DNA from: Eledone cirrhosa
Taxonomy: Eukaryota
Assembly: GCA_964016885.1 (NCBI GenBank)
Contig: OZ024740.1
Coordinates: forward strand, 157,108,001 to 157,172,000
DNA length: 64,000 nucleotides
Direction: 5' to 3'
Shown here piece by piece: positions 3,710 through 63,780 of this stretch (its first letter is position 1; each line of letters opens with the position of its first letter). Both the position numbers and the translations under genes were made by a program. The notes under the pieces are model-generated. The model saw only the letters and a list, made by a program, of their open reading frames with translations, was not told where the DNA came from and searched no databases.

Positions 3710-5115
3710 TAGTATTTACGTATCGAGAAAAGAGAAAAAAAGGGGGATAGGTGATACATATAGTTATTTGCCAAGTAGCGTATGCCAAAGGTGCTCGATA
3801 TTAGTGCCGGCAGTATTAAATATTCGAAGTGTTAATATTTAGTGGGCTAGAGAGTTAGCAGAGCGTAAGCACGTGGCAAAGTAAAAAATCGGAGAATAGA
3901 CCGTTACAACATGTTTATTTAAAACAGCACCTACGTACGTTTCGCCCAGTTGGGCTTCTCAAGGGCATAAATAATCACTAGTGTTCCTTATATTGCTCGG
4001 AAAGAGATTTTGGGGTTAAATCCACATCAAGGTTCATTGCTCACAAAAATTTCTTGTTTTGATTTTGCAGCAGGTCAAGGGAGGTAAATCTGGCCGGTGT
4101 TAGGGCAGTCTTTCCCGCACAATTTTTTTTTTTTTTTTTTTTGCCGCATCCATTTGTCTGAGGCTGGGTCTGGTATGCAAGGATTGTTTCCTGGGTGTTA
4201 TTTTGCAGCGCCTGCCTGCCGGGGTGTTAAGACTTGTTGCAGGGAGGTCCAGTGTAATGTTTCACTCTTCATCCTTAACCCATCTGAAGAAGGATATTTT
4301 TAAGCGATGTGTACAACTTATCGCTGTTTCAGCTCTGCTGTTGATGAGCTCGTGGGGTGCAGTTATGATGTGGTCGAGCTCCATGAGGCAAAGATCGCAT
4401 TTCCTCTTGAAGTTGTACGGTGCAGCCCTGCCGACAATCTCCCAGTGCGTGGAGAAGCTGATGTTTAAGTCCTTTAGTGATGTGATGTAGTGCGCGAGCG
4501 AAGTGGAGTGCCTTAGTTTTCTATTTGTGAAAGAGTGGAGATGTGTTCGAAACCTAATTTTGAACGGGCCGGAGGTAGCCCCTATATAATGTTTAGCGCT
4601 ATTGTGGCTAGTAATAGTGCATCTATATATAACCCTATCAGTCAAGCAGTATCCTCTAAGGGGGCAGCGTCCTCTGTCGCGGCAGTTGCAATTTCTGTCG
4701 CGGTTCCGTCTATTTCCCACGGTAAGGCTATCATTGTTGCTGCCTACGTTGTTACCTATGCTACCGAAGCTGTCGTTAGCACCATTACAACCCACAGCCC
4801 GCGGGGTGGTGCGATTGTTATTCCGCACGTCATGTTCTGCATGTTCCCCAGTGATTTCGCGGTTATTCTGATTGCGTCTGCGGATTCCGCTGCCAACACT
4901 ATTGGATGCTGCCAGGGAGTTGTTAAGGCCGATATAGTTATTGTCAGGTGTAGCTGCGTCTGTGTCGAGGTGCTGTGTCTTGGTGATCTTACTGTGGTTC
5001 GTTGTTCCTATAATGTCTGCTAGGTTAGGAGTAGTAGAGAAGGATATTTTTATATTGTTCCTATTAAGAATTTTTCTATACCTATGGTTGGGCGGGAATT
5101 TTTCTATACCTATGC
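3710..5115 (-). mobile_element. 5'-truncated Penelope-like element, Naiad-type
   Basis: GIY-YIG ORF remnant followed by a 3' pseudo-LTR with an HHR, ending ...TACTA(TA)n on the - strand. Confidence 0.85.
4262..5115 (-). pseudogene. PLE C-terminal fragment: linker plus GIY-YIG endonuclease
   Basis: [65 protein letters not shown]. The N-terminal part of the track ORF (to 5260) is microsatellite read-through. Confidence 0.85.
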
Positions 5116-15037: not shown

Positions 15038-18000
15038 CTACAGAACCTCATGATAGACGATGTTCTTTGTTTTACCCCTGGGAAGAAAGGCAAAGATATT
15101 GTCCCGACTCCCGACTCTGGAGCATGCAACGTATAAGTGGCTATGTGAGAAATATGGCTCTTCCAGGTGAAGACCTGCCACTGAAAGTGTCTGGCTCTGG
15201 GACTTATTGACGGACATTGCAAAGCACACACGAAACGGAAATTGTGATCGCCTGAAAGTGAAATGAATGTCCGCCCCTGATGTAGTCAGGTGGACCCTGG
15301 GTATTAGTGCATCCTCTCCCTTTCCACACCCAGTGAGAATTGTGGCCTCTATCAGGCGCGGAGATATCTTTTTGACCACAAGGCGCGTGCCATTACAGAG
15401 TTTTGGTGGGGTTTGATTCCTCAAAAGCATCACGGGGGTTCCCTCTTTCAGCTTTAATATGTGGGGAGGTAGTCCTGGAGGATTCCCGGAGTTAAGAAAT
15501 TCAGTGGGTAATTCACTGCCTCCTGCGGATCTGGGACAATATCAACGGATTTAAATGTGTGAAGCTCACCAGGAAGGCACTGCAGTAACTGGTCGTTGAT
15601 TCCACTGACAGTGCTATTTTTCGGAGCCAGGATGGCTCTTTCACATAACCAACGCTGGTCTCTGAAGTTTTCTTGTAGATTAGATTGGGGAAAACTCTTG
15701 CCTTCAGGTCAGCCACAGTTGTAACAGTAGTGCAAAGGTCGTCGATGAGTATGTCGCCATGTGCATCCATAGGAATCCTGCTACCGCCCAGTGCAAGGAG
15801 GTCCTGAGCAAATTTTTCTGAAGAAGGGTCGCCGTGCTGCTGTGCCCGCATATTCGTAGACAGCCTCAAAGTTTTTACATGCTGCCAAAGTGAAGAAGAC
15901 TTTAGACAGGCGCGTACCTCATCGGCTCGCGTTCCTTTGGGTATGACGGGAAGAGTTTGTCTGAAGTCTCCTGACAGTAGCAGAGTAACACCTCCCATGG
16001 GATCTTCACAATCCTTGATATCTCGCAAGGTCCTATCAAGTGCCTCGAGAGCACCTTTGTGTGCCATTGTGCATTTATCCCATACAATGAAGTCGCACCT
16101 CCTCAGCAGTTGTCCTCAATCGGAGTTTTTAGCAATGTTGCATGATGGAGTTTCTGAGGACGCTAAATTGAGGGGAAGTTTAAAACAGGAGTGTGCTGTC
16201 CTGCCACCAGGCGGCAATGTTGGAGCAATACTAGACGATGCTAATGCTAGCGCGATTTTTTTCTGCTGCCTTAAATTAGCGAGCAGTAGTTTAATAACAA
16301 ACGTTTTTCCAGTCCCTCCGGGAGCATCCAGGAAGAAGATGCCCCCTTTCCGAAGAACTACGGAATCAGAGATAGTGTTGTACGCGAGTAGCTGGTCGGG
16401 AAGTAGTTTTGGCATAGTATCATCGACGTATTTTGCGAGGGCGACAACGTCATATGACGTTTCTCGGATGATGTCAGTGGGGAGTTTATTTGAATCCGAT
16501 CGTAGGGTTTGCGGCAGGCCATATGTCGGTAAAGTACCCCCCCCCCATGAATATTGATCGGTCTTCTAAACTAATAAGTGCCCTATTGTAGACATCATCG
16601 CAGAAGCCTACGTCAACATTTGGAAGCAGTAGCTGGGCCTAGTATCTGAAGTCCTCAGGCATGTGGTTTCTATATTTTAACCACAAAGAATCAGGATCAG
16701 GAAAATCGCACGCGTGCAGCATAAGTGCGAATAACTTTGTGCGAATGTAGTGCACAATAGGCCATCAACAGTTCTGAGGCTGGGGAAACCTGTAAAAGCA
16801 GGCGCAGGTAGAAGCACTCGTGCTGGTTGGGATGAACCATATAAACTCTCTCCAGGCAAGAGTCAAATCGGATGCCGGGGTATCCATCAACATACTGGCC
16901 TGCCTTTCTCCGTGTCCATGATATTTTGTTCCAGGTGTAATATAATGGCACCTGTGGATACAGCAGCATTCGAGCGAACTGGCTTTGCTGGCAGAGCCTA
17001 AAAAACGCTGTGGGTGTTGTTTCCTTCAGCTCATCTGCAAGCTGAAAAGCATTGTTGTTGTTGAAATAAATACATTGCCCATTCTCAAGGTGAACCGCAA
17101 GCTTTTCAATTGCAGGATGCCTCTGATGTATGGGAAAACCAATAATCTGCCAGAAGGCCTCGTTGCTGTTTATGTATCGCCCCACCTGATAGTGCGTAAC
17201 TTCTTCGCGGGAGGATTCATTATGAAAGGCGAACATAGCAGCATCTGAGCCCTTGTTGACGTACTTGAAGACATACTTGATGGACTTAATGGAATTGCAG
17301 AACTCAACATTGATATGGGCATTGAATGTCTTAAGGAGGAGTGGACAGTAAGGTACAATCCATCTGTTGTCCACCTCGAAGTTACCAACCTTTGCAGTAA
17401 ACCCCCCATCCTCAGGACTTCTTCGGTATAATGGATACCCGTCATGACCGGTCTGGGTTTCGAGAATGAACTTTCTGGGGTATCTTTTGGAGCACCCATT
17501 GTCCTTCATACATGGGGGGGGGGGGGACAAATTGAAGCCACGCCCACACGGACCATGCACCATGTGTGTCTTAACCTGAACTCAGAGTTCCCTATCAGTT
17601 GATGGGTCGGGAAACTCTGCCGATATAATTCTGTTGATGTCATTAGATGTAATCTTTGTCGTTAACCAAATCAAGATGTGTGCATGTGGCAGACCTCTTT
17701 TTTGCCATTCAATTGTATACATGTCACACTTAATAGGTCCAAATATATGGCCTGTTTTAATAAGGTACATCAGTTTAATTAATCGAAGCCTAAATACTCT
17801 TCCTGTGAGATCATGCCTGCCTTTGGCCTTTTGACCAGGAAAAGGTTCATTCTTGATCTCCGGCCACTTGGGGTTGCAAGTAAAAGTAATAAATAAATCC
17901 GGCCTGCCATAATGCCGTACATATGTCATGGCGTCCTGCGTTCTTTCATGCATATATCTGGGGCTCCCGGTGAAAGATGAGGGCAGTATGCACACTTGAC

Positions 18001-19609
18001 CTAGGCTTCCCCGATCTGCATCACCGTTGATTCCTTCACGGATGTGGATGTAACTGTCACAACGAAGCTGTTTTTTATTCAGTCTGATGAAACACAAACT
18101 TTCCGACTCCATTTTTGCACACATGTCAACAGCGAATTGGTTGAAGAGATCTTGTGAACGGTGAAGGTGATTGAGGGAGGATTCTCGGATCATGAAACGG
18201 AATGCGTAGAAGTCCATACAGGAAACTTTTTTGGTTGGGTGCTCAGCCTGATTGTTAGTCGTATGCTGCGGAATGCCAAAATGGCATCCATCTTCCTCAT
18301 TCACAAAGAGCAGTGGATACTGGAGTGCATCGTAGGATCTCTGTATCTCACTGATGCGCTGGGGGGAGTTGTCTCGGTGTTTGATGACAATGTCTCTTTT
18401 GTTGTTCTGTTCACCGTGCAGGACAATGGCTATTTCATTGCACGAGGGTGCATTATAGCGGCCGGCATGTTCCTCCGACGGTTTCTTGTCAGCATTAATG
18501 ATAATGTTAAAGTCATCCAAAGGCGCTGATTCCAAAGCACATTTGAAGCTCCTGACATAGCTGTTGTTCCTATGAAGCATGTCTTGAAGTTGAAGTAGGA
18601 TATCCAAATCAGTATCGTTGGTAATGGTGTGTCGCCTGGTAATTTGTTGGTGGAAGTTTGCAATGAAGTATACTTGAAGAAACCGGGGTTCCTCCTTTTC
18701 CAAAGGATGCAGTGGTCCAATAAGATGGTACACCTGCCCCTGAACCTTGAAAGTAGGCATAAATCCAGCCTCCGTGATGCGCTGCGCTCCGAAAGAGGTC
18801 ATCTGGAAGGCGCAATTGTATTGACGGATGTGACGAAGGAAGCCTCGAGACTCCGACGTAGTTCCGGTAAGAAGAAGCTGCAATGGTTGTGGCGTATCCT
18901 GAAGAGGGGGCAAGTGTACATTGGAGCAGCAGATTGCTGCAGGTTCTGCTGACCATTTTTTGGCCCTACAAAACTGACAAGTGGTGGACATGCTGCCGAT
19001 TGCAATATCAGAATGGTGTGAATAGTTTTCTAATGGGTCATAATTAAATGCCTTCAATGACCATCGTGAGCGGGAAGGTCTTGAAATACCCTGTACATTT
19101 GCTCTGCGGTGAACAGTACCCCCCGACTGGGCGGTTTGGTTAGAGGTGGCCTCGAAAATCCGTCCCGCAGCAGTAGCATCAGCATCTCTGTTTCGAAGAA
19201 GTTCACCTTGTTGCTCATTCTCTGCATATCGAGCAGCTGCCGTTGCTGCAGCACCACTTGCAAGGCGAATTTCACGTTGTTCATTGGTCATAACAGTTCG
19301 TGCGGCTGCAGTTGCGGAAGCATCTCTGGTTTGGCGAAGTTGGCGTTGTTCGTCATTCTCATTAGCTCGTACAGCTGATGTTGCGGCAGCATTTCTGTTC
19401 AGACGATTTTTGCGTTGTACGCCATTCTCAGCAACTCGTGCGGCTGCAGTTGCTGTGGCATTTCGTGTTTGGCGACGTAAACGTCGTTCTTCATTCTCAG
19501 CAACTCGTGCTATGTTTTCTGACTGACTTATTTCATGATCAATCCTTGCCTTCTTCGTCTGATATTTGGCCGACTGCCGCCCAATTGAAGGTTTTCTCTT
19601 TTTAGGCAT
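15038..19609 (-). pseudogene. Helitron RepHel transposase, split over at least 5 ORF fragments
   Basis: Rep motifs PDLFITFTCNPKWPEI, EWQKRGLPHAHIL (HUH) and KYVFKYVNKG (Y2). Helicase motifs FLDAPGGTGKTF, LLSGDFRQTLPV, LCNGTRL and [20 protein letters not shown]. Likely start MPKKRK at 19609. Confidence 0.95.
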
Positions 19610-20305
19610 TATCTCGCGGAGTACCAAACTGTTGGCCTAAGTGGGGAAAGTAGCAAAAACTTGAGAAGTTTAAACTTAGATGTTATGCATTGAGAACGAT
19701 AATTTAGAGGTTAATAATTTAAATGGAAGAAGAAAAGGTTTAAAAGTAAAAGCACACAATATTCGGAGATTCGCAATGTCAACTTAAATTGAGAGAACTG
19801 CTAATGTGCATCTTACGCCCGCATTAATGTACGGGGAGTAGAAAATTTAATCGTTTTAACTCCTGCGAAACATATAATATTTATTATTGGCATTAATCTA
19901 CGGTGGGCGTAAGGCAAATATAGATGGTAGTTTGGTAAAATTAACACAGGAATAACATCAACAACGTACCAGAAAGCTACAAAATACTCGTACAGTTGAT
20001 CGACTAACGTCGTGCTATCAAACGTATTTCTCACAGGAATATGCACGGTATATGTTCAGTCGTGTTGACTAATGTTAGTTGCGTAGTCCAATTAGAAATC
20101 GCGACCTTCAATCGGGCGAATTGTTCGAGGTCGTTTATGGCTTAGCTAGCAATTTCTGAGAGCATGTCAGCTTATGTCAGCTAATTGGCGAGCCAATTAA
20201 AGGTCGCCTCAATAGCACGGGCCAAATCGGCCAAGTACTTCAAAAGTTAAAAGGAGCCTAGTATTTGTACACAGACAGACACACACACAGACCGACTTGC
20301 TCGTA

Positions 20306-20813: not shown

Positions 20814-20882
<69 letters not shown>

Positions 20883-21011
20883 ATATATATTATATATATA
20901 TTATATATATTATATATATATATATATTATATATATATATTATATATATATTATATATATATATATTATGTATATATTTTATATATATATTATATATATA
21001 TATATATATGT

Positions 21012-21044
<33 letters not shown>

Positions 21045-21069
21045 ATATATATATATTATATATATATAT

Positions 21070-21101
<32 letters not shown>

Positions 21102-21185
21102 ATTATATATATATATATATTATATATATATATATATTATATATATATATATTATATATATATATATTATATATATATATATATA
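20306..21185. repeat. (TA)n microsatellite with TATTA variants
   Basis: Seen directly. Confidence 0.95.
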
Positions 21186-22888
21186 TAGTATTAGTTATAC
21201 TATTTATGGTTATGCAAATACAAAACCTTAAGCAGTTGTAAGTATTTTACACACACCCTAAATAGTGGTAGGCAGTAATGTATTACTACCTTATTACCAG
21301 TAAGTTAAGTAGCTCAATGTAAAAACATCAGATGGTTTACAGAGCAGTTATATGAAATATAAGAATCAAAGAACTGCTCAAAACATTATTGTGCTTACAG
21401 CTGTTTCCTCCAAACCGAGGTTTGGATTCTTCGGAGCAATTTATTAATGCATGGACAGTTATATGACCTCCTTTTCAGCCGAGAGACATACCAAATACAT
21501 ATTCAAACATTGATACATATTCAAACATTGTGGGTCAACATTCATTACAGAATTTAGAGTGGCAGTACACACTTCGAGATTACATTTATATTAATAGGTA
21601 CAATCAAAAATCAAAGATATAGGTTAAAGTACAACATGAAGATAAGTGGTTATATAGTGCAAATGTTATATGTGTGGCACGCATGTGCGTCTTGTTTATA
21701 TAGTGTGGCAGAGAGATATGTGTGGTAGAGGCACTTAGGTAGGTAAATAAGAGTGTTAGGTTGGTAGATCTGGTGGCAAAATCTTTATATGATTGATATA
21801 GTTTGTGTGTGGAGAAATATTATAAGCATTAAAGATAGTGCAAGCATTAAAAGTGTTAAAAGTGTTATAAGTATTGGAGATGCACAGCGCAGGGATGTCA
21901 AGTATTTCATGTACTTCGGCATTTTCATGGTCAGGGGAGTGTATATTTCGATTATATGCCTTTCACATAATCCACGACAATCCAGTTAGAGATCGTAGTC
22001 TGGTGTTCTTTAGTTCGATACAGGAGGTTGTTACGTTTCGAGAAACGCCATTGAATACCGGAAGTGTGTGTGTGGCTAAGGGGAGTTAATGCATGCGGGG
22101 AGGTAACTCTGGGGTTTCTATATCTAGCCATTAAAATGTGTCCCAATATAGACCCTAAATTCTATGGTGAAGTGCACCTTCCAAGAGAGACTTTTAAAGT
22201 ATAAAGTGTATTAACTATAGAGTAGTTTAACTAAGTTATGCTGAAGGTGATCATATTATTATGGTGGATTAACCCATCTTAAGGTGCTACAAATGGAAAT
22301 TATAGATGATGAGCGAGGATTCTAAATTAATGATCTCTGTGGTTGTAGTCTGCTCATATGACCAGGCGCGGTGACTGCAGGATTGCTTCAGGACCCAATG
22401 ATCTCTGGTAAGATCTGGGTCATCGCTTGCTACATTGGATGTCGAAAGATAATCGTCCCCAGGCAGGCCAAAGGTCAGTCCGCAGTCCTCGCGACCCCTC
22501 TCAGACCGTCAGATCCTCCATATACGTACAACCCGCACGGCAGTTGCATTGCATTCACTCACTGCGCCCAGCAGCCCGGTCCTACTGGTCAATAGCGCTA
22601 CTCGATTAAATCACTTTACATCTGTCTAAGGAAGGTGTTTCCTCTGCCCAACACTATCCAACCGATCAATTCATGCTCAAATTACCCTTAGAGCGGTGTA
22701 GTGCCGTTCAAGTGGGTGGATGTTGTCACACCTGCCGTAGAGGTATAAATGGGTATTTTCCCTGCGAAGGGTTCCGGAGGGATGTCGTTGTTTGTGTTAT
22801 AAAGGATCAGCTAGTGTTGGGTATGTAGTATAGGGTGTGTCTCTGGTGTTTGATGCTAGATGTGGTGTTAGGTTCTAGTCCGACATTG

Positions 22889-24266
22889 CTATATATAGGG
22901 CTTAAAGTTTTGGAAGGAATGTCTGAGGCGGTGCTGGCAAGTTGCAAACACCTCAGATTTTTTGTTAAGTAGGTTACGGTTGGAGAAGATAATATTGTGT
23001 GTCTCTAGTATACAGAGGTTACAGAATTTATTAGGTGGTTTGTAAGAGGTCGCGCTGCCTATCACTTCCCATTTGAGTGTGTATGGTTTATTTTTAGATT
23101 TTAGATAGTGTATGTAGCTAGAAAGTGAGGTGGAATTGGCTAGGCTGTGCTTTTTGAACGAGTGGATGTGCGAGTTATATCTGATTTTGAAGCAGTTAGA
23201 AGTGGAGCCTACATAGGTTTCTGAAGAGTTATTAGTCGTGACTGTGCATGAGTATATGACATCCTTGGTTAGGCATTTTTTATCTAAAGGGCAGGTTCTA
23301 TTAGCTCTACAGTTACAATTATCCTGTGCGTTAGTCCGCTGGTTATAATGCAATGCGGAAGTCTGTGTGGTGGATATAGGATTTTGGGTGTTCGGGTTGA
23401 CAACCCTGGTGTTATTACTTATACTAGTGTTATTTCTATTGTTACTGCCGTTGCTATGGTTGCTTGCTACAGTGGTATTTAGAGGGTTTGCATCCCGTTG
23501 TGATTTTGTTTGATGGAAGTAAGAACTAATTTTACTATTATTGCTGCTAGCTATGTGGTATGCTAAGTTAGGCGTCGTAGAGTATGAGATTTTAATGGTG
23601 TTTTTGTTTAAGAGGTTGTGGTACTTGTGTCCTAGAGGGAAGTTTTTATCTAGTAGTGAGAAGAAAGCCCTAGGTATGTTGGTGGAGACATTTAGGTTGA
23701 AAGGAGGGTTGAAAAATGTATTATTTCTTCTTCTATTTTTGCTTTTAGTGTTTGGTGTGTTGCTTCCTCCTAAGGCCCCACAGTAGTTTCCATGGTAATG
23801 GTTACTTCCGGTGGCACCCTCCGCTTTGGTGTACTTGTGGTTGCTATTCCTATTATTAGATTTCCTCATGGACATGTTGTGCGAGATGATGTTGTAGCTA
23901 TGTGTTTTCTTAGGTAGGAACTCAATTTCTATATTATGGCCGGAGCTAGCTAATGCTTGATTGTAATATTGTGAGTTTTTGCTAAATATGTTTGCGTCAT
24001 AGGACAGACTAGAGATTCTATTGGACACCCCCTTAGAGATAGAGTTTAATATTGATCTAGGGTGATTAGACTTGGTATCTACGTAAATAAGTTTCTCATT
24101 AGGCTTATGGAAAGGTGTATATATTTTTGAGTCTAGGTATAGTGTGGCGTCTAGGAAGTTAACATTTTTAGTGTTTTTGTCCATGGTGATACTAAGGTTA
24201 AAGTTTTTGAATGTCTTATGCAGTTGTTTTCTAGTTCTTTCTATATTAAATTTTTTATATTCTATA
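22889..24266 (-). pseudogene. PLE ORF: RT C-terminus/thumb, linker and GIY-YIG; open but 5'-truncated
   Basis: VNFLDATL, YTPFHKPN, SNHP, FFNPPF, CNCR..CPLDKKCL..VIY..YVGST..FKIRYNSH..SF, CNLCILE, LLNKKSE, CQHR. The first residues of the track ORF (MQALK) come from the inverted arm. Confidence 0.92.
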
Positions 24267-24679
24267 ACTTTTAATGCTTGCACTATCTTTAATGCTTATA
24301 ATATTTCTCCACACACAAACTATATCAATCATATAAAGATTTTGCCACCAGATCTACCAACCTAACACTCTTATTTACCTACCTAAGTGCCTCTACCACA
24401 CATATCTCTCAGCCACACTATATAAACAAGACGCACATGCGTGCCACACATATAACATTTGCACTATATAACCACTTATCTTCATGTTGTACTTTAACCT
24501 ATATCTTTGATTTTTGATTGTACCTATTAATATAAATGTAATCTCGAAGTGTGTATTGCCACTCTAAATTCTGTAATGAATGTTGACCCACAATGTTTGA
24601 ATATGTATCAATGTTTGAATATGTATTGGTATGTCTCTCGGCTGAAAAGGAGGTCATATAACTGTCCATGCATTAATAA

Positions 24680-24732
24680 ATTGCTCCGAAGAATCCAAAC
24701 CTCGGTTTGGAGGAAACAGCTGTAAGCACAAT
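24680..24732 (+). ncRNA. Hammerhead motif with U4C core (identical sense copy on - strand ~21388-21441)
   Basis: tgct CCGAAGA a-tccaaacc-tc-ggtttgga-g GAAA cagctg TA agca. Stem III is palindromic. Confidence 0.7.
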
Positions 24733-24770
24733 AATGTTTTGATCAGTTCTTTGATTCTTATATTTCATAT

Positions 24771-25250
<480 letters not shown>

Positions 25251-25639
25251 GTAGGAGGTGAGTTTTATTGTAGTACAATAAAGCAATATTTATAAGATAT
25301 CGGATAAGAAGCACTCTACAGTTTGTAGGACTGGAGTATACATAATATATAAGAACAAATGCAACCATTCTGGTTGGAATCTCCAGAATTGTTGCATTTT
25401 TTATGGGTATGTCAATATTTATTTATAAAACTAACCTATATTATATTTTATCTGATGAAAGCGCACCATAATTTGCTTTGGTGGCCCTTCAAATATGTAT
25501 AATGAAATAAATATGGTTTTATAAATATAGTTTCCATTTGTTAATATATTGTATATTTACTCCAATAATTTGTTGAGTGCTTTATATCAGTTAAAAAATT
25601 ATTTTGCTTCTTTTATCCCAACAAATTAAATATAACCTC

Positions 25640-51339: not shown

Positions 51340-51996
51340 TATTCTCGAAATGAACATATATATAATTTATGTTACTTTAAAAATTTAGTAACAAGTGAAT
51401 TTAATGCATCCTATATCGACAGAAACTTGTGTCGGTCATTACCATAGGAATCTCATTTTATTTATATCTTACTACACTTATCGTCCCAATATAATTTTAC
51501 ATGTATATTGGAAAATATATGTAGAACTATATGGATAGAATAAATTATTTCATACTAAGACATCCTGTTACCTAATTATTGTAATTATTTCAATTATCTA
51601 AGTTTGAATTATCTTGTACTCCCCCCCCCCCCCCTTGTACTCTGGCAATCTCCCAGTTCTGGTAGTATCAATCAGCTGTAGGAAGATATAATAATCCAAA
51701 ATAAAATGATTTGAACCCAGTATTCAAGTGAAATTTTAAACTATGAAAATTATTTTTGATTATCACAAAGTTAGTCTTCCATAATTCTATTTTAAATTCT
51801 AAAATTCTTTTCTAATTGGGAATATGGTTCAGAGTTAAATATAAACGAATTATAAACTATTACCACCCATTTCGTTCAAACTGAATGGCAGTTACATGAA
51901 AAATACAATTATTGATATTCTTAATTCAAAATTTTTTTTAGTCCAGAATTAGCCGTCGAAACGGCTTGAGCTCAGCCGTCGGGGTCCTACTCGTTC

Positions 51997-52046
<50 letters not shown>

Positions 52047-52047
52047 C

Positions 52048-52266
52048 AATGATATTAATGAATGAAAACTATATTTATAAAACCATATTTATTCTATTAC
52101 ATATTTATTCTAGTACCTATTTCAAGGGTACCAAAACTTTGGTACGCTTACATCAGATAAAATACTAAGTTTGTTTCATAAATATTGACATATCCGTTTT
52201 GACGGCTATTTCTGGTCCAGAAATAGCCGTCGAAACGGCTTGAGCTCTGCCGTCTGGGTTAAACAT

Positions 52267-52272
<6 letters not shown>
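52048..52272. mobile_element. Chimeric module with outward-facing termini
   Basis: The left part is the reverse complement of the 53975-54085 family, with a decayed HHR (CTGATGT). The right part is the gtcgaaacggcttgagctc(a/t)gccgtc family. Confidence 0.7.
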
Positions 52273-52307
<35 letters not shown>

Positions 52308-52568
52308 AAAGTTAAACAAGGTTCAATGAATACATCAAAGAATAAGTTTTACAATAGATTGGAAGCACTCTACAGTCAAAAGGTTTTCCAGAGTTATTAA
52401 TATTAATTCAAAATATTAACAAAATAGATATTCTTGTGATCAATTATATTTTATTATACATATTTCAGAGGTACTGAGTTAAGTTCAACAGTACGTCCTC
52501 ATCAGATAAAATAAGATGATGCATGACATACCCTGACATAGTAGATGGTTAAGATTCAGTCATGGTAT

Positions 52569-53386
52569 CTGATGAGGACGTACTGTTGTACATGGTAGAA
52601 CCATGACTGAATCTTAACCATCTACTATGTCATGGTATGTCATGCATCATCTTATTTTATCTGATGAGGACGTACTGTTGTACATGGTAGAACCATGACT
52701 GAATCTTAACCATCTACTATGTCATGGTATGTCATGCATCATCTTATTTTATCTGATGAGGACGTACTGTTGTACATGGTAAAACCATGACTGAATCTTA
52801 ACCATCTACTATGTCAGGGTATGTCATGCATCATCTTATTTTATCTGATGAGGACGTACTGTTGTACATGGTAAAACCATGACTGAATCTTAACCATCTA
52901 CTATGTCATGGTATGTCATGCATCATCTTATGTTATCTGATGAGGACGTACTGTTGTACATGGTAGAACCATGACTGAATCTTAACCATCTACTATGTCA
53001 GGGTATGTCATGCATCATCTTATTTTATCTGATGAGGACGTACTGTTGTACATGGTAAAACCATGACTGAATCTTAACCATCTACTATGTCATGGTATGT
53101 CATGCATCATCTTATGTTATCTGATAAGGACGTACTGTTGTACATGGTAGAACCATGACTGAATCTTAACCATCTACTGTGTCAGGGTATGTCATGCATC
53201 ATCTTATTTTATCTGATGAGGACGTACTGTTGTACATGGTAGAACCATGACTGAATCTTAACCATCTACTATGTCATGGTATGTCATGCAACATCTTATT
53301 TTATCTGATGAGGGCGTACTGTTGTACGTGGTAGAACCATGACTGAATCTTAACCATCTACTATGTCATGCATCATCTTATTTTAT
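52569..53386 (+). repeat. 92-bp tandem repeat x9 (last unit 82 bp) containing the HHR 5' half
   Basis: CTGAT(G/A)AG starts at 52569, 52661, 52753, 52845, 52937, 53029, 53121, 53213, 53305 and 53387. Confidence 0.95.
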
Positions 53387-53445
53387 CTGATGAGGACGTA
53401 CTGTTGAACTTAACTCAGTACCTCTGAAATATGTATAATAAAATA
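53379..53445 (+). ncRNA. Minimal type I hammerhead motif (mirror at 52447-52513 -)
   Basis: tattttat CTGATGA ggacgtactg-ttgaacttaact-cagtacctct GAAA t-atgt-a TA ataaaata. Confidence 0.8.
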
Positions 53446-53486
53446 TAATTGATCACAAGAATATCTATTTTGTTAATAGTTTGAAT

Positions 53487-53566
<80 letters not shown>

Positions 53567-53570
53567 ATAT

Positions 53571-53720
53571 GAAAAGAAACAGGAGCCCGACGGCTGAGCT
53601 GTCGAAACGGCCGGAGCTCAGCCGTCGGGGTCCTAAATCTTTTCATATGACTCACTCTACTACCATATCGAGTACTCTGGTGCATATGGTTCACCTGGTA
53701 TCTTACCATACCCTTTCTGA
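53571..53720 (+). mobile_element. Short fold-back module
   Basis: cccgacggctgagct..agctcagccgtcggg hairpin, then terminus ctactac..gagtactctggtgc..cacctgg..ttacca, which is shared with 43491-43570 (inverted) and 44615-44670. Confidence 0.7.
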
Positions 53721-53741
53721 TATATATATATATATATATAT

Positions 53742-54167
53742 ATACGATATTAAATAAATGGAAACTATATTTATAAAACCATATTTATTTCATTATACAT
53801 ATTTCAGGGATACCAAATTAAAATATGGTATGCCTTCATCAGACAAAATACAATATATAAACAGTTTTATAAATAATTTTGACGTACACTATTAGATGCA
53901 ACCATTATTTTTGGAAGCTGTGTTTATTTATAAAACTGTTTATATATTGTATTTATAAAACTGTTTATATATTGTATTTTTTCTGATGAAGGCATACCAT
54001 ATTTTAATTTGGTATCCCTGAAATATGTATAATGAAATAAATATGGTTTTATAAATATAGTTTCCATTTATTTAATATCGTATATCTACTCCAAAAACTT
54101 GTCGAGTGCTTTATATCAGTTATAAAATATTTACTTGTTGTATCCCAACAATTTTAAATAGAACTTT

Positions 54168-56167: not shown

Positions 56168-59100
56168 GTCGACCTACGTAGTAAATCGTATCATCGTGAG
56201 CTCCGCAAAGGTTTGTTATTTTCAGTTGTTTAAAATTGCCATTTATGGAAAAAGTTTTATTGTTAACTGTATATAAGTGCACATACATTGATTTCTGAAA
56301 AGGACACTCAAAAATATTGGGGCTTTGAGCCCAAAATTTAAACTTTTTATAATTATCAAACAAAAAAAAATTTCTTTAAAAGATCATGGCCGACTCAGAG
56401 TCACACCTTCCTCACAAACTAACACCTCACACCGACACCACCATTGTAAATATTACTACGTTTGCCAACACTAAAAATATAAGCAGTAGCAATATTTTAA
56501 ATTTGTCTCAGGCAGCACATTCATTTCCCGCCATTACCAAGGACTGCCGGTGTTAAAGCCGCCACCCCCACCACCACCACAGCGACAACAGAAACAAAAG
56601 AAAAAAATAAATTAACTCGTGATATCGAAATGAATTCAACCAAAATGAACTCTTCCACACCGAACACCACTGACGCCACCACCACCACAACTGAAACTAA
56701 AATTAACAATAACAAAAATAACGATAACAGCAACAATGAAATTAAGAAAACCACCCTGAGTTTTTCCAAAGTAGCAAAACAGTGCGAAGTATTCCAGGTA
56801 ACTCAGGAGGAATTAGAAGAAGCCAAAAAAATGGTAAAGAAAGATGGGTACAGGGTCAGCCTCCCCCCCCCCCCCCCACACACACACACCTAATAAAATG
56901 GAGCATCGGCGCCTATGCACCGTGTCTTATCGGACGATTAGCATAAAATCGCGCCGAGTGGAACGGGCATCCGAGTCCCAAATCCCAAAAGCTTTGGGAC
57001 ATGTGTCGGCAAAAAAAACCCACATCAGACATGAGCAGAAATATGGAACCGTGGACGTGTTCTTTGAAACACCACATGAGGCCAGAGAACACTCCATTCC
57101 CCCATTAAGAAGTGACGACTTCACACTCGTCCCAAACTATTGTGGCCAGAGACTCGTGAAGATCAGGGTGACCCATGTTCCACCGGCCATCTAAATTCCC
57201 TGGCTAATAGCTGCCGTCCTCGCCGGCATCGAAGCCAACACCAAGATAATCGAAATAGCGAAAGAAAAGCAGGAGAACTGGTCCGGATCTGGGATGGAGC
57301 TCCTGATCCAAGCGGCACATGTGGGTCCTTGATCAATTTAGATCAGACGAAAGCTTTCGATAGGGTCGACCATCGTTACCTAGCGGCTGGCTGTTGGCCC
57401 GTCTTCAGAGGCTGGATCGCTGCCATGCACAGCGACATCTGCTCTGTGGTGAGAGTGAACGGTCACCTTTCGGAACCATTCAACATCATGTGCTCGGTCC
57501 GCCAAGGATGTCCCCTTTCAGCCCTCTTGTACGTATTGACTCTCGAACCATTACTGCACAGACTGGAGACGTTGAGGGGGGTCCCGCGCGAACTAGGATG
57601 CGGAAGATCCTTGTCAGCATATGCGGACGATGTCACCGTAGTGGTGCCGAACGCCAAACACATCGAGGCGACCGACACTACACTAAGAGAATACAAAGCG
57701 GTGACAGGAGCAATGATCAACCAAGAAAAGTCAGTGGGCCTGCAGCTCGGCACCTGGAGAGGCAGGTCCATGCCGTCCAACAGCGTCGTCGGGCGCTGGA
57801 CGGACGGACCGGTTAAATTGCTAGGGGTCTGGTTCGGTCCGGACCTCCAGACAGACAAAAACTGGGCCGAGGTGACGAGCAGGGTGGCTTCTCTCACCCA
57901 GAAATGGGCGGAGAGGAAGCTATCTCTGAAAGGTCGAGCGGAGGTGACTAACGCGTACATCGTGTCCGTCATCTACTACCGCTTGACCGTCGTACCTTGT
58001 CCTAAGCCCCGCCTGACTGACCTGGAGCGTTTGTTCTTTCGCTTTTTGTGGAAGGGGCGCGCTCCGATGGTCAGGCGGTCCATCTGCTGTCAACACCCGC
58101 TACGTGGAGGGCTGGGCATGCCGTGGCTGATGATGCGCAGACACGCGCTCAGGCTACGACATCTCCACCTCTTCCTCGACGGTGATCAGGTGTGGTCGCC
58201 GTTTACTAGACACGTCTTTCCCCAGCTCGTCTCCTTGACGGAGCTGCAGTCCTGGGTCAAGCGAAGACCGAGAGGTAGCGCTTGGAGACTGGAATGTCTT
58301 CAGGCGCTCAACCAATCGGGCAATGTGATCGGTGGAAACTCCACCTTGGCGTTCTATAGACGATTAGTGGAGGGGAAGAGCGATGACGTACTTGGAGAAA
58401 CTCTAGGCGTCGACGAAAATCAACTAGCCAATCTCTTTGGAAGGACTTTCGGGCCGGGGCCTATGGACAACTTCCAGAAATCCCTGGCCTGGCAGTGCTA
58501 CCGAGGAGCTTTGCCAGTTCGGGATAAACTCTACAGGCATGGAGGTGCTGTCAGCCGGGCATGTCCGAGATGCGCGCAGGGCGACGAAACCGTCCTGCAC
58601 GCACTCGTCCAGTGTCCGAGCATTGCTGACTTGTGGGTTTATGTCGAACACCTGCTGTCACGTGTAGGACGGATCCAGCTATCAGCTGAGTCCATCGTGA
58701 GGATTGCCCCGCCCTCTTCCTTTAGCCGGGAAGGGCAGGCAATTTTTATCTGTCTGGTGGCCATGGCGAAAGAGATAGTATGGTGGACACGTTTGAAAGG
58801 GCTGAAGACGAGCACTTACCTCTTCGGTGATGCCCTGATTAACTTTTTCAAATTTCATTTGAAAAGGAGAATTAGGGTAGAGAGGGAAGTGCTCTCTTCC
58901 CAGCATTTTGTTGAAAGATGGGTGAGAGAAGCAAGTATGGCCCGAGTGAATGGGCCTACTCTGAGTATGTGTCTGTAAATTAAAGGTGGAAAACTGGGAG
59001 AGGGCACTTGCCCTGGTGGTCAGGGTCACTGTTGCCTTTTAATGGGCTTTCTCCACAAATGTCCCTCGGAAGTCTCCCCCCTATTGGGGAATTTTTCATT

Positions 59101-61579: not shown

Positions 61580-63780
61580 AGAAGATTATATTAATAAGAG
61601 GAATTCCAACTTTGTCTGATTTACTCGTTTTATTTACAATCCTTTAAAATATATAATGGTATTATAATGAAATAGTATGATAGAATATTAAATTCTAAGT
61701 GTTAATTGAACAAGTACGTTCATGCTTTCGCAATCTTCAGGTTCATAATATGTGGTGACAGTCAAGTTTGCAATTTTCAACTGTAATAAGATGGGTAAAT
61801 TTCCTACCTTTTATACATTTTATACAGAGAAAAGTGGCTCCAGAATGCTAAACCCTATAAACTGTATTTCGACCAATCAGTGTGTAGTTTCACTGAATTA
61901 CTAAAGCTGATTGGTTTAAGCGTCACGGCTGGTTGAGCATGTCTAACGACCAATAATCATATCCAAAGCATCAATTGTTTTGCTATTTTTAGAAATGATG
62001 AAAATAGCATTTTCTATTAATCATCACCATCAACATCACTTTTATTATTATTATTATTATTGTTGTTGGTGTTGTTGTTGTTGTTAGTGGTCGTAGTCAG
62101 AGTGGTAGTAGAAGTAATACCCCTAAGCGTTATTATTGTTCATTTAGCTTGGGTTTGAATTTATCAATAAAATTCTTTTCTTTGATTTTTCTCTTGATTT
62201 CACTTGGGCTGTGTAATTTGACCACATGTTGCTAGATGGTTACTTAAGGGTATCTGACGGACATTTGGGTCTCTGATTTGTTGACGGTGTACCCGTGCAC
62301 GTTCCGATAGTGCATTTCCAGTTTGACCGACATATAGTTCTTCACAATTCGGGCATTTAATGCAGTAAATTAGATTTCTGCTTTTGCAGTTCATATTTGC
62401 ATTTGGGAATATTTTTCCAGTTTTTGTTTTCATATATTGACCGGCGTGTATGGATTGACATGTGCCGCATCGACTATCATTGCATTTAGATACAGTGGAT
62501 GATTGGTCTTTGTTGTTAAGGTCAAACTTTGCTTTTGTTAGTAATTGCTTCAACTTTTTTGGCTGTCTTTTACTAAGAGTCAAAGATCGATCTGTGATTA
62601 AGCCTTTTAATTCATTACTTTGAGCAATGATCGGTAGGTTTGCTTTGGCAGTGTTGAAGATATTCTGGTGACATGGGTTGTGTGTCATTATAAATGGTAT
62701 GACCAGTTCTTGGTTTCTTCTTCCTTGGGTTGTCCTAAGTTGTTGTATAGGTATTTTTATAGCCCGCTGTATGCCATTTTCTATAAGTAGAGATGGGTAT
62801 TTTTGTTTGAGCAAAAATTCTCTTAGTTCTGTTAGGCGTTTGTACCTGGTATTCGTATCTTCTACAATGGTACAAATTCTTCTGGCTAAGCAGTATGGGA
62901 TGTTGCGTTTTGTATGAGGTGGATGGCACGACTTAAAATTCAGATATATTTTCAATGTACTTTCTAAAGTCAGTACTATATTTTTCCTCTATTTCTTGGT
63001 AGAGTTGTTGTTCTAAGTATCCCATTACAGAGTTCGCGTAAACGGGAGCAAACTTCGTTCCCATCGCTGTGCCTCTAATTTGGATGTAATTCTTTCCATT
63101 GAAGAAGAAAGTGTTGTTTTCCAGAATAAGTTTAACTGCGTCTAATATAAATGGCGCTGTGAATCTAATGGGAATCATTTCTCTGTGTTTTTCCACCCAG
63201 TATTTAACCGCCTTTATTCCTAAATCATGTGTAATGTTGGTGTAAAGGCTTACCACATCAAAACTGAGTAGAAGTGAATTCGTTTCCGTGGTTTTGGGAA
63301 GATGGGACAGGAAGTCGATATCATCCCGGATGAAACTGGGTATGTGAATACATAGTGGTTTCAAAATAATGTCAACAAAATTGCTTAGACGGTGGGTGGG
63401 GCATGTTGGACCAGCTATAATAGGTCTAAGTTTTAAGTCTTTTGGGTGTAATAATTTAATGTACTCACTGTTTTGTTCTCTTACTGCCAGTTGTATTTCT
63501 TTTGACTTATGAACTTTCGGTAGGCCATACAGGTTGCTGGGTTTCGGCTCAAAATTGGTGATGTAGTCTCTTTCCTTATCAGTAAATGAGTTGTGGTATT
63601 TTGAAGCCAGGTTGTTGATCTTCTTCATGATGTTGTGGTCTATATTTGACGGTATTTCATGATAGAATGTTGTGTCTTTCAGTTGTTCCTCGACCAAATC
63701 CTTGTAGTATTCAGTATCCATTATAACAACTGCACCCCCCTTTATCTGCTTGTTTAATTATTATTGTTTTATCATTTTAT
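61580..63780 (-). mobile_element. Penelope-like element (Neptune/Poseidon-type), truncated and internally deleted
   Basis: ADKGGAVV, LYGLPKVHK, LRPIIAG, SFDVVSLYTNI, GTAMGTKFAP, SCHP, C..RC.TC..CKSRNLIYCIKC..C..LYVGQT..L..R..HR..I, FKPKLN. The YxDD motif is missing at a deletion near 62950. 3' HHR-like motif. Confidence 0.92.
61707..61745 (-). ncRNA. Decayed minimal HHR in the PLE 3' region
   Basis: tgaac CTGAAGA t-tgc-gaaa-gca-t GAAC gtac TT gttca; A15.1 is replaced by C. Confidence 0.55.

Follow-up and report, generated by a model that had tools for sequence, protein, structure and literature searches.

Penelope-like elements (PLEs) of the Hydra clade carry several marks, including a CxCX5C linker, CxxC and CxH motifs and no CCHH motif, as set out in the consulted portion of Craig et al. 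(PMC8557442, section 11). The same portion gives these elements as generally under 3 kb, which is a tendency and no strict criterion, and describes for PLEs a truncated copy that lies next to the element in inverted orientation, as well as a one-sided tail. For a PLE of Anolis, the consulted part of Frangieh et al. (PMC11167929) reports that in vitro the reverse transcriptase (RT) starts at two internal sites and that both strands are extended. The formation of tandem and inverted PLE structures and the origin of retrozymes from pseudo-LTRs (pLTRs) are stated to be open questions in the parts used of both papers and of a preprint (bioRxiv 10.64898/2026.07.22.740005). In the preprint, a retrozyme is recognized when two or more successive units each contain a complete hammerhead. 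Dimer-type hammerheads with a self-complementary stem III show poor in vitro activity, according to the consulted part of Cervera and de la Pena (PMC4209133).

The locus described here is an array of hammerhead 5' halves in the window, i.e. the whole stretch of 64,000 nucleotides of Eledone cirrhosa DNA that was analysed. Array and arms together are regarded as an ordinary by-product of a known class of element. Transposon-derived minisatellites, with which the array was also compared, are single-locus arrays with shared, recombined variants and with changes piled up at one end.

Structure of the array and its flanking arms

The array consists of nine units, eight of them 92 bp long and one 82 bp long, flanked by two inverted arms. 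TRF placed it at 52566-53406 (+; period 92, 9.2 copies, 95% match), and the hammerhead cores start at 52569, 52661, 52753, 52845, 52937, 53029, 53121, 53213, 53305 and 53387. Each unit combines pLTR positions from about 0 to 83 with an 11-base piece, mostly antisense of the pLTR 5' end. This locus-specific junction piece (first copy at 52589..52599, +), made of two extra bases and a copy of the antisense pLTR 5' end, is found in all nine units. The first restart past the join (52566..52588, +) starts at the hammerhead core, without the stem I 5' strand. The last core is the only one that has a 3' half: it is followed by the stem II 3' strand, GAAA at 53426, a stem III that is self-complementary and the stem I 3' strand.

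The arms (52395-52530 and 53362-53497) are inverted and 98% complementary. The left one is a full pLTR of a Penelope-like family with its 3' end outward (52400..52566, minus strand) and bears, upstream of the array, a complete type I hammerhead (52447..52513, minus strand; core start 52505). It extends as a 96-bp tail (52304..52399, minus strand) down to 52304, beyond the span of 52400..53492 given in an earlier reading of the sequence alone. The same tail occurs at L063, L081 and L082, and in full elements it sits after the pLTR and before the ORF. The right arm (53336..53492, +) is a tail-less pLTR with a 10-bp internal deletion. Its complete type I hammerhead (53379..53445, +; predicted cleavage after 53437) has a stem I of 8 bp, a stem II of 3 bp, a mismatch and 6 bp, closed by a G-U pair, and a palindromic stem III. 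The outer ends of both arms adjoin (TA)n tracts, the target microsatellite, which TRF located at 52271..52304 on the left and 53489..53570 on the right. In Rfam, no hammerhead family appeared among the 150 of 168 matches listed.

The core positions, the TRF result and the arm complementarity confirm a 92-bp array of hammerhead 5' halves within a fold-back, as the sequence-only reading had proposed. The single complete hammerhead that it placed at the array end is the last core, which alone continues into a 3' half, and the inverted full copy that it saw upstream corresponds to the complete minus-strand hammerhead. Some details had to be corrected. Ten cores do occur at the 92/82 spacing, nine of them being CTGATGA as claimed for all ten; the seventh (53121..53127, +) is CTGATAA, in which the conserved G8 is altered. 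The stem II strand ggacgtactg generally follows the cores, except for gggcgtactg in unit 9, and tattttat generally precedes all cores but the first, with tatgttat at 52937 and 53121. The alternation of variants described for units 3-7 is strict in units 4-7 only, unit 3 being of mixed type, and the dimeric higher-order step read from it is suggestive at most, the two-unit period not being significant (permutation p 0.075).

The parent element

By their motifs, the arms appear to be the pLTRs of a Hydra-type Penelope-like element with RT and, at the C terminus, a GIY-YIG domain, and the previous assignment to PLE hammerheads of the dimer type was borne out. A 33-letter hammerhead pattern gave 2,369 exact matches in the AT-rich, 3.0-Gb host genome (control 0), and a sister subfamily with a shorter stem II gave 1,892 matches there, eight of them within this array. 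Using the last unit and the right arm as query, 71 matches were obtained in the same genome (40 of 130 candidates scored). In some copies a common AT-rich UTR lies upstream, with the last part of a GIY-YIG frame beyond it. The RT fragment beside one copy, used as query in turn, gave 150 scored matches, and six loci were inspected. At L080, L081 and L082 the pLTR flanks RT/GIY-YIG ORFs in sense orientation. The order of the full element is pLTR-tail-ORF(RT, GIY-YIG)-UTR-pLTR, in sense at L081 and L082, where an inverted truncated copy stands in front of the element.

At L080, a frame of 750 aa contains YRDD (318) and YNYIG (635); by its motifs it is a single ORF with RT and C-terminal GIY-YIG. 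Both RWR, a conservative change from RWK, and DKT are present in L081 and L085, and DKT in L080. The CxCX5C linker was found in four of six frames, CxxC in two and CxH in two, the frames being partial or decayed, and CCHH, judged by eye, is absent from the element frames. The hammerhead in the pLTR is in sense and the target is (TA)n, as in the Hydra clade; the tandem period at L082 is about 4.0 kb, above the length tendency of the clade (<3 kb).

Pfam returned no family for any of three element proteins and a PDB search with the element protein gave no relevant match, so that the clade assignment is based on motifs. The Naiad clade was ruled out as parent, since the endonuclease is C-terminal. 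Judged by sequence, the parent would represent a new Hydra-type family, which differs from Hydra-1_Obim because its hammerhead is unlike the one listed for that element.

Head-to-head fold-backs

Of 20 head-to-head pairs examined, 18 have one tailed and one tail-less arm, which is the usual arrangement in this family. Arm divergence was 2.4% within a locus against 4.5% between loci (20 pairs), with the own partner being the closest arm in only nine of the 20 and two pairs being worse than average. Among 56 pLTR segments, 37 start within -6..+5 of one position, while 32 have their 3' end at position 158-172 and 22 at position 255 or beyond; this sample comes from queries without native upstream sequence, long copies below 84% identity being filtered out. 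At the present locus, an inverted 5'-truncated copy is adjacent at the 5' end and a tail is found at one end only. The two arms here differ by the tail, the 10-bp deletion and one substitution (1 in 156).

Palindromic joins with a spacer of 0-1 base would fit two molecules better than a self-primed hairpin. We infer that the fold-back is formed by two cDNAs from one source, started on either side of the (TA)n cut and joined at their 3' ends. An origin of the two arms from two source elements was rejected. Among 21 pairs, eight have arms that agree at diagnostic sites apart from the 10-bp deletion, in which they differ, and for this reason the deletion is regarded as recurrent. An RNA-editing footprint was also discarded, with A>G at 11 against T>C at 8 (p 0.36) and no overall A>G excess. 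At pLTR position 70, in stem II, A>G was observed in four of 21 pairs, each time in just one of the arms (L002, L012, L023, L086), and also in unit 9 of the array (window 53314), a value of about 0.002 among A sites for a position chosen post hoc. Position 70 may be a hot spot of RNA editing or of RT error.

Proposed aborted restarts at the join

A genome search for other arrays with the same junction, suggested in the sequence-only reading, gave eight matches, all eight at this locus, and no second array. Similar restarts with different junctions occur at dozens of loci. A junction of sense, antisense 5' end and sense restart was found at L086, L089, L094 and L096, as a single occurrence in each. 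L106 was excluded from the restart set, its 23-bp repeat being unrelated. The restarts at related joins support a template switch during insertion, which had been one of the proposals, as the most likely origin of the repeat.

The breakpoints were tallied with a stem I-core motif across related families, in lists covering contigs C1-C4 and the start of C5. Of 41 loci, 33 were usable (four SINE insertions with target duplication and four loci with (TA)n at the break were dropped); eight breakpoints were placed, and four loop limits changed, by visual inspection. At these 33 loci, the number of breaks per base is about 1.0 close to the core and drops with distance, to 0.11 beyond 54 nt. Loop II is not enriched: it took six of the 18 breaks in stem II, where 4.76 would be expected (P 0.33). 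In a search with a 5' motif, all 12 of 12 other loci were read by eye to break well before the hammerhead, at positions 17-52, and 11 of these breaks lie no further in than 27. These results argue against the stem II hairpin as the trigger, as had been supposed. A weak hairpin effect is possible, with 14 of those 18 breaks falling in the 5' strand or the loop of stem II. A loop II hot spot was rejected: the first signal, seven of eight loci broken in or next to loop II, was biased because the search patterns demanded a stem II strand, and less biased motifs removed the effect.

A derivation of the junction from the sister subfamily was examined in 12 copies, of which the 10 informative ones differ upstream and two are mis-oriented. 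The short stem II of this subfamily has the same first five bases as the junction, and the local fold-back yields the same bases; such an origin is a minor possibility. A second head-to-head fold-back, of a related hammerhead family, lies at window 53737-54088, with a 25-bp restart at its join (53925-53979). No description of multi-unit arrays at PLE joins was found in the literature searched or in the consulted part of the preprint bioRxiv 10.64898/2026.07.22.740005; older PLE papers may hold one, and the supplements of the preprint may list similar ones.

Predicted ribozyme activity

Both complete motifs have the CUGANGA and GAAA core, helices I and II and a palindromic helix III, and on folding the complete motif forms stems I and II. 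At the position of the G10.1-C11.1 pair there is G-U here, and G-C in the sister subfamily. The sequence of helix II varies among related families and its pairing is kept. The predicted energy of the trans target complex is -11.0 kcal/mol, against -32.5 kcal/mol for the best joint fold. The predictions put the cost of opening the enzyme strand at 15.8 kcal/mol in one unit and at 6.5 kcal/mol for the middle strand of three and, for an intact pLTR, the cost of opening its 3' half at 8.0 kcal/mol. In a read-through RNA, GAAA and the cut site of the last ribozyme are predicted to pair with the left arm. The modelled folds thus point to buried half-ribozymes, to a complete ribozyme paired with the antisense arm and to an array that would be catalytically silent. 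The many enzyme strands that had been thought able to cut in trans are, by these folding energies, predicted to be buried or out-competed.

Probable origin and multiplication of the unit

A variant inside the junction piece is common to units 3, 4 and 6, all four combinations of two variable sites are present among the units, and units 4-5 are the same as units 6-7 at shared sites. The five private changes all lie in units 7-9 (chance 0.008), none being found in units 1-6. To judge from this pattern, the shared and recombined variants would need duplication and exchange at the DNA level, at least for units 3-7. The junction itself was copied, because independent jumps would leave varied junctions, as at L042, and here one junction repeats. 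The frequency of private changes (five over some 820 bp) is comparable to the difference between the arms (1 in 156), so that array and insertion may be of one age. At least two repeats of one junction were counted at seven of 33 loci, including this one, which speaks against an exclusively late origin and would suggest reiteration during insertion rather than later; the other 26 loci have a single one.

The locus is probably best explained as a head-to-head pLTR pair in (TA)n, in which an aborted restart produced a 92-bp unit that was then multiplied and reshuffled mainly as DNA. The enzyme would cut both (TA)n strands and start reverse transcription at two internal sites, giving a tailed and a tail-less arm, in line with the consulted part of PMC11167929. 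Both cDNAs would come to a halt close to a single fixed 5' position, which is likely the 5' end of the RNA, and their 3' ends would be joined by a polymerase (the RT of the element or a host repair enzyme being the candidates) that copies one onto the other, often drops off and re-primes. At this locus, about 83 bases would have been copied before a switch to the antisense 5'-end piece and then a restart. The unit with its junction would have been duplicated and recombined as DNA, as is evident in units 3-7 and presumed for the others. A transcript is predicted to fold the halves away and to pair the complete ribozyme with the antisense arm, and would be silent.

It is rather unlikely that the whole array was written in one insertion, by an RT or repair polymerase that repeatedly slipped back by one unit in a telomerase-like manner and re-paired on 80 bases of identity, later exchange merely shuffling the variants. 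Identical junctions are indeed repeated at L119, L129, L133, L139, L172 and L181, the array and the arms are of similar apparent age, and PLE RTs are sister to telomerase RT (PMC8557442, consulted part), but units 1-6 lack private changes, shared variants require duplication after mutation, and most restarts are single (26/33 loci). That a Hydra-type RT joins two cDNAs by jumping and can reiterate the same jump in one event, as in telomerase, is conceivable and rather doubtful. A fold-back chimera with an over-expanded repeat, produced by the assembly or the library, is very unlikely. Fold-backs are known to trouble assemblies (PMC8557442, consulted part) and the array is known from assembled sequence alone; against this, the arms differ in tail, 10-bp deletion and one substitution, the same asymmetry of a tailed and a tail-less arm is seen in 18 of 20 pairs and the units hold ordered variants.

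The array could also have been kept since its transcript supplies enzyme strands or dsRNA that cut or silence family RNAs. An inverted repeat would yield dsRNA, and the unit holds exactly the strand that we take to be used in helix I/II trans hammerheads. This is highly improbable: the predicted energies disfavour the trans complex, one core is without G8 and two have a stem I mismatch, a single locus is involved, and stem III needs a dimer, such ribozymes being weak in vitro (PMC4209133, consulted part). Rolling-circle copying of a small circular RNA was among the initial proposals. With an RNA of 92 nt (or 184 nt), reverse-transcribed in the manner of non-LTR retrozymes, it would account for head-to-tail units with a single junction; circles have been proposed as PLE templates and shown for retrozymes (consulted parts of PMC4209133 and PMC7229834, respectively). 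It is hardly tenable here, since the junction occurs at no second locus, the unit has not moved, the antisense piece of the junction is typical of a join, and a single circle would give no shared, recombined variants; moreover, the unit is unable to release itself because it has neither GAAA nor a cut site. Two of the three outcomes that the sequence-only reading itself had named as telling against its interpretation were in fact found, namely a junction unique to the locus and a variant pattern that fits exchange at the DNA level.

Other arrays and neighbouring elements

An 81-bp array of the same family, with nine units, is present on the minus strand of contig C3 (149688523-149689187; L139, L067). 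In eight of its units the hammerhead core is complete as far as the cut site; an AT-rich stretch then replaces the normal stem I 3' strand. Its junction gave eight matches, all at its own locus. The C3 array resembles a retrozyme at birth and, being an array of complete hammerheads, is a better lead than the window array. Other multi-unit arrays of pLTR pieces were found at L129 (C2:307.828 Mb; 78 bp, two variants alternating), L133 (C2:345.521 Mb; 81 bp), L119 (C1:63.698 Mb; 65 bp), L172 (C3:236.265 Mb; 132 bp) and L181 (C4:365.468 Mb; 25 bp). A 45-bp satellite of about 300 units occupies C5:23436000-23450860 (L183, L184); a derivation from PLEs was set aside, as it appears to come from a SINE end (SINE-tail-like). 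L066 (C1:247583000-247591800) consists of tandem copies of another Hydra-like family, 99.7% alike, with a nearly open RT-endonuclease frame.

Within the window, hammerhead-like motifs of other families lie at 2091, 7785, 51134 (+) and 52156 (-), with a stem II that varies and keeps its pairing. A short GC-rich hairpin repeat stands beside PLE ends in three copies (51935-52000, 52209-52260 and 53580-53640), as it also does at L009, L042 and L088. Hydra-like RT/endonuclease remnants with 33-42% identity to L080 were found at 22892-24295 (-) and 4289-5098 (-), the former within a large fold-back with an inverted repeat at 20823-21854 / 24267-25253. The frames at 15516-19636 (-) are presumably those of a Helitron Rep/helicase. 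We also take 57116-58975 (+) to be a LINE-like RT frame and 62203-63757 (-) a second PLE-like RT frame, of another type.

Significance of the locus

The array as such deserves little weight, as a minisatellite confined to one locus and seeded by an ordinary PLE insertion. It is of value as one frozen join among many, which is mildly useful for documenting the joining of PLE copies. On thousands of recent copies in the genome, the joining step can be modelled from the fixed 5' stops, the two 3' ends and the aborted restarts. If reiterated RT jumping were true, the position of the jump would decide between arrays of half-ribozymes, as in the window, and complete ones, as on C3; the C3 array would be a retrozyme at birth without circular RNA; and thousands of joins would map PLE second-strand synthesis base by base. 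Reiterative RT jumping as a route to retrozymes is a tentative and somewhat unlikely idea, best pursued on the C3 array and on joins genome-wide.

Comparison with known systems

The parent element is similar to the Hydra-clade PLEs of Craig et al. (PMC8557442, consulted parts) in its RT with DKT and RW(R/K), its CxCX5C linker, its C-terminal GIY-YIG with CxxC and CxH, its sense pLTR hammerhead, its (TA)n targets and partial tandems, and its inverted 5'-truncated copy with a tail at one end. It differs from what is given there in its period, which at about 4.0 kb includes a long 3' UTR, the published elements being mostly under 3 kb, in its tail of 96 bp, against 30-40 bp for PLEs, and in its hammerhead, which is unlike that of Hydra-1_Obim. 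In the consulted part of Frangieh et al. (PMC11167929), Poseidon of Anolis has in vitro two RT start sites leading to ends with and without a tail, which fit the two classes of 3' ends observed here. It cuts and extends both strands of AT-rich DNA, and its protein is predicted to be a dimer; Poseidon belongs, however, to another clade and its hammerhead overlaps the ORF start.

The hammerhead shares with the minimal PLE hammerheads (Cervera and de la Pena, PMC4209133, consulted part) the type I core, the long helix II and the palindromic helix III suiting a dimer, except that helix II is closed by G-U and not by the conserved G10.1-C11.1. The closing pair is A-U in neighbouring families and G-C in the sister subfamily. 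Like the non-LTR retrozymes (consulted parts of PMC7229834 and bioRxiv 10.64898/2026.07.22.740005), the array consists of tandem repeats related to PLE pLTRs, but none of its nine units contains a complete hammerhead, whereas two consecutive ones mark a retrozyme, and its 92-bp period at one locus contrasts with the 150-450 bp and many loci of retrozymes in PMC7229834. With the transposon-derived minisatellites the array has the same variant pattern in common; its seed, however, is the product of an insertion junction and not a repeat inside the element.
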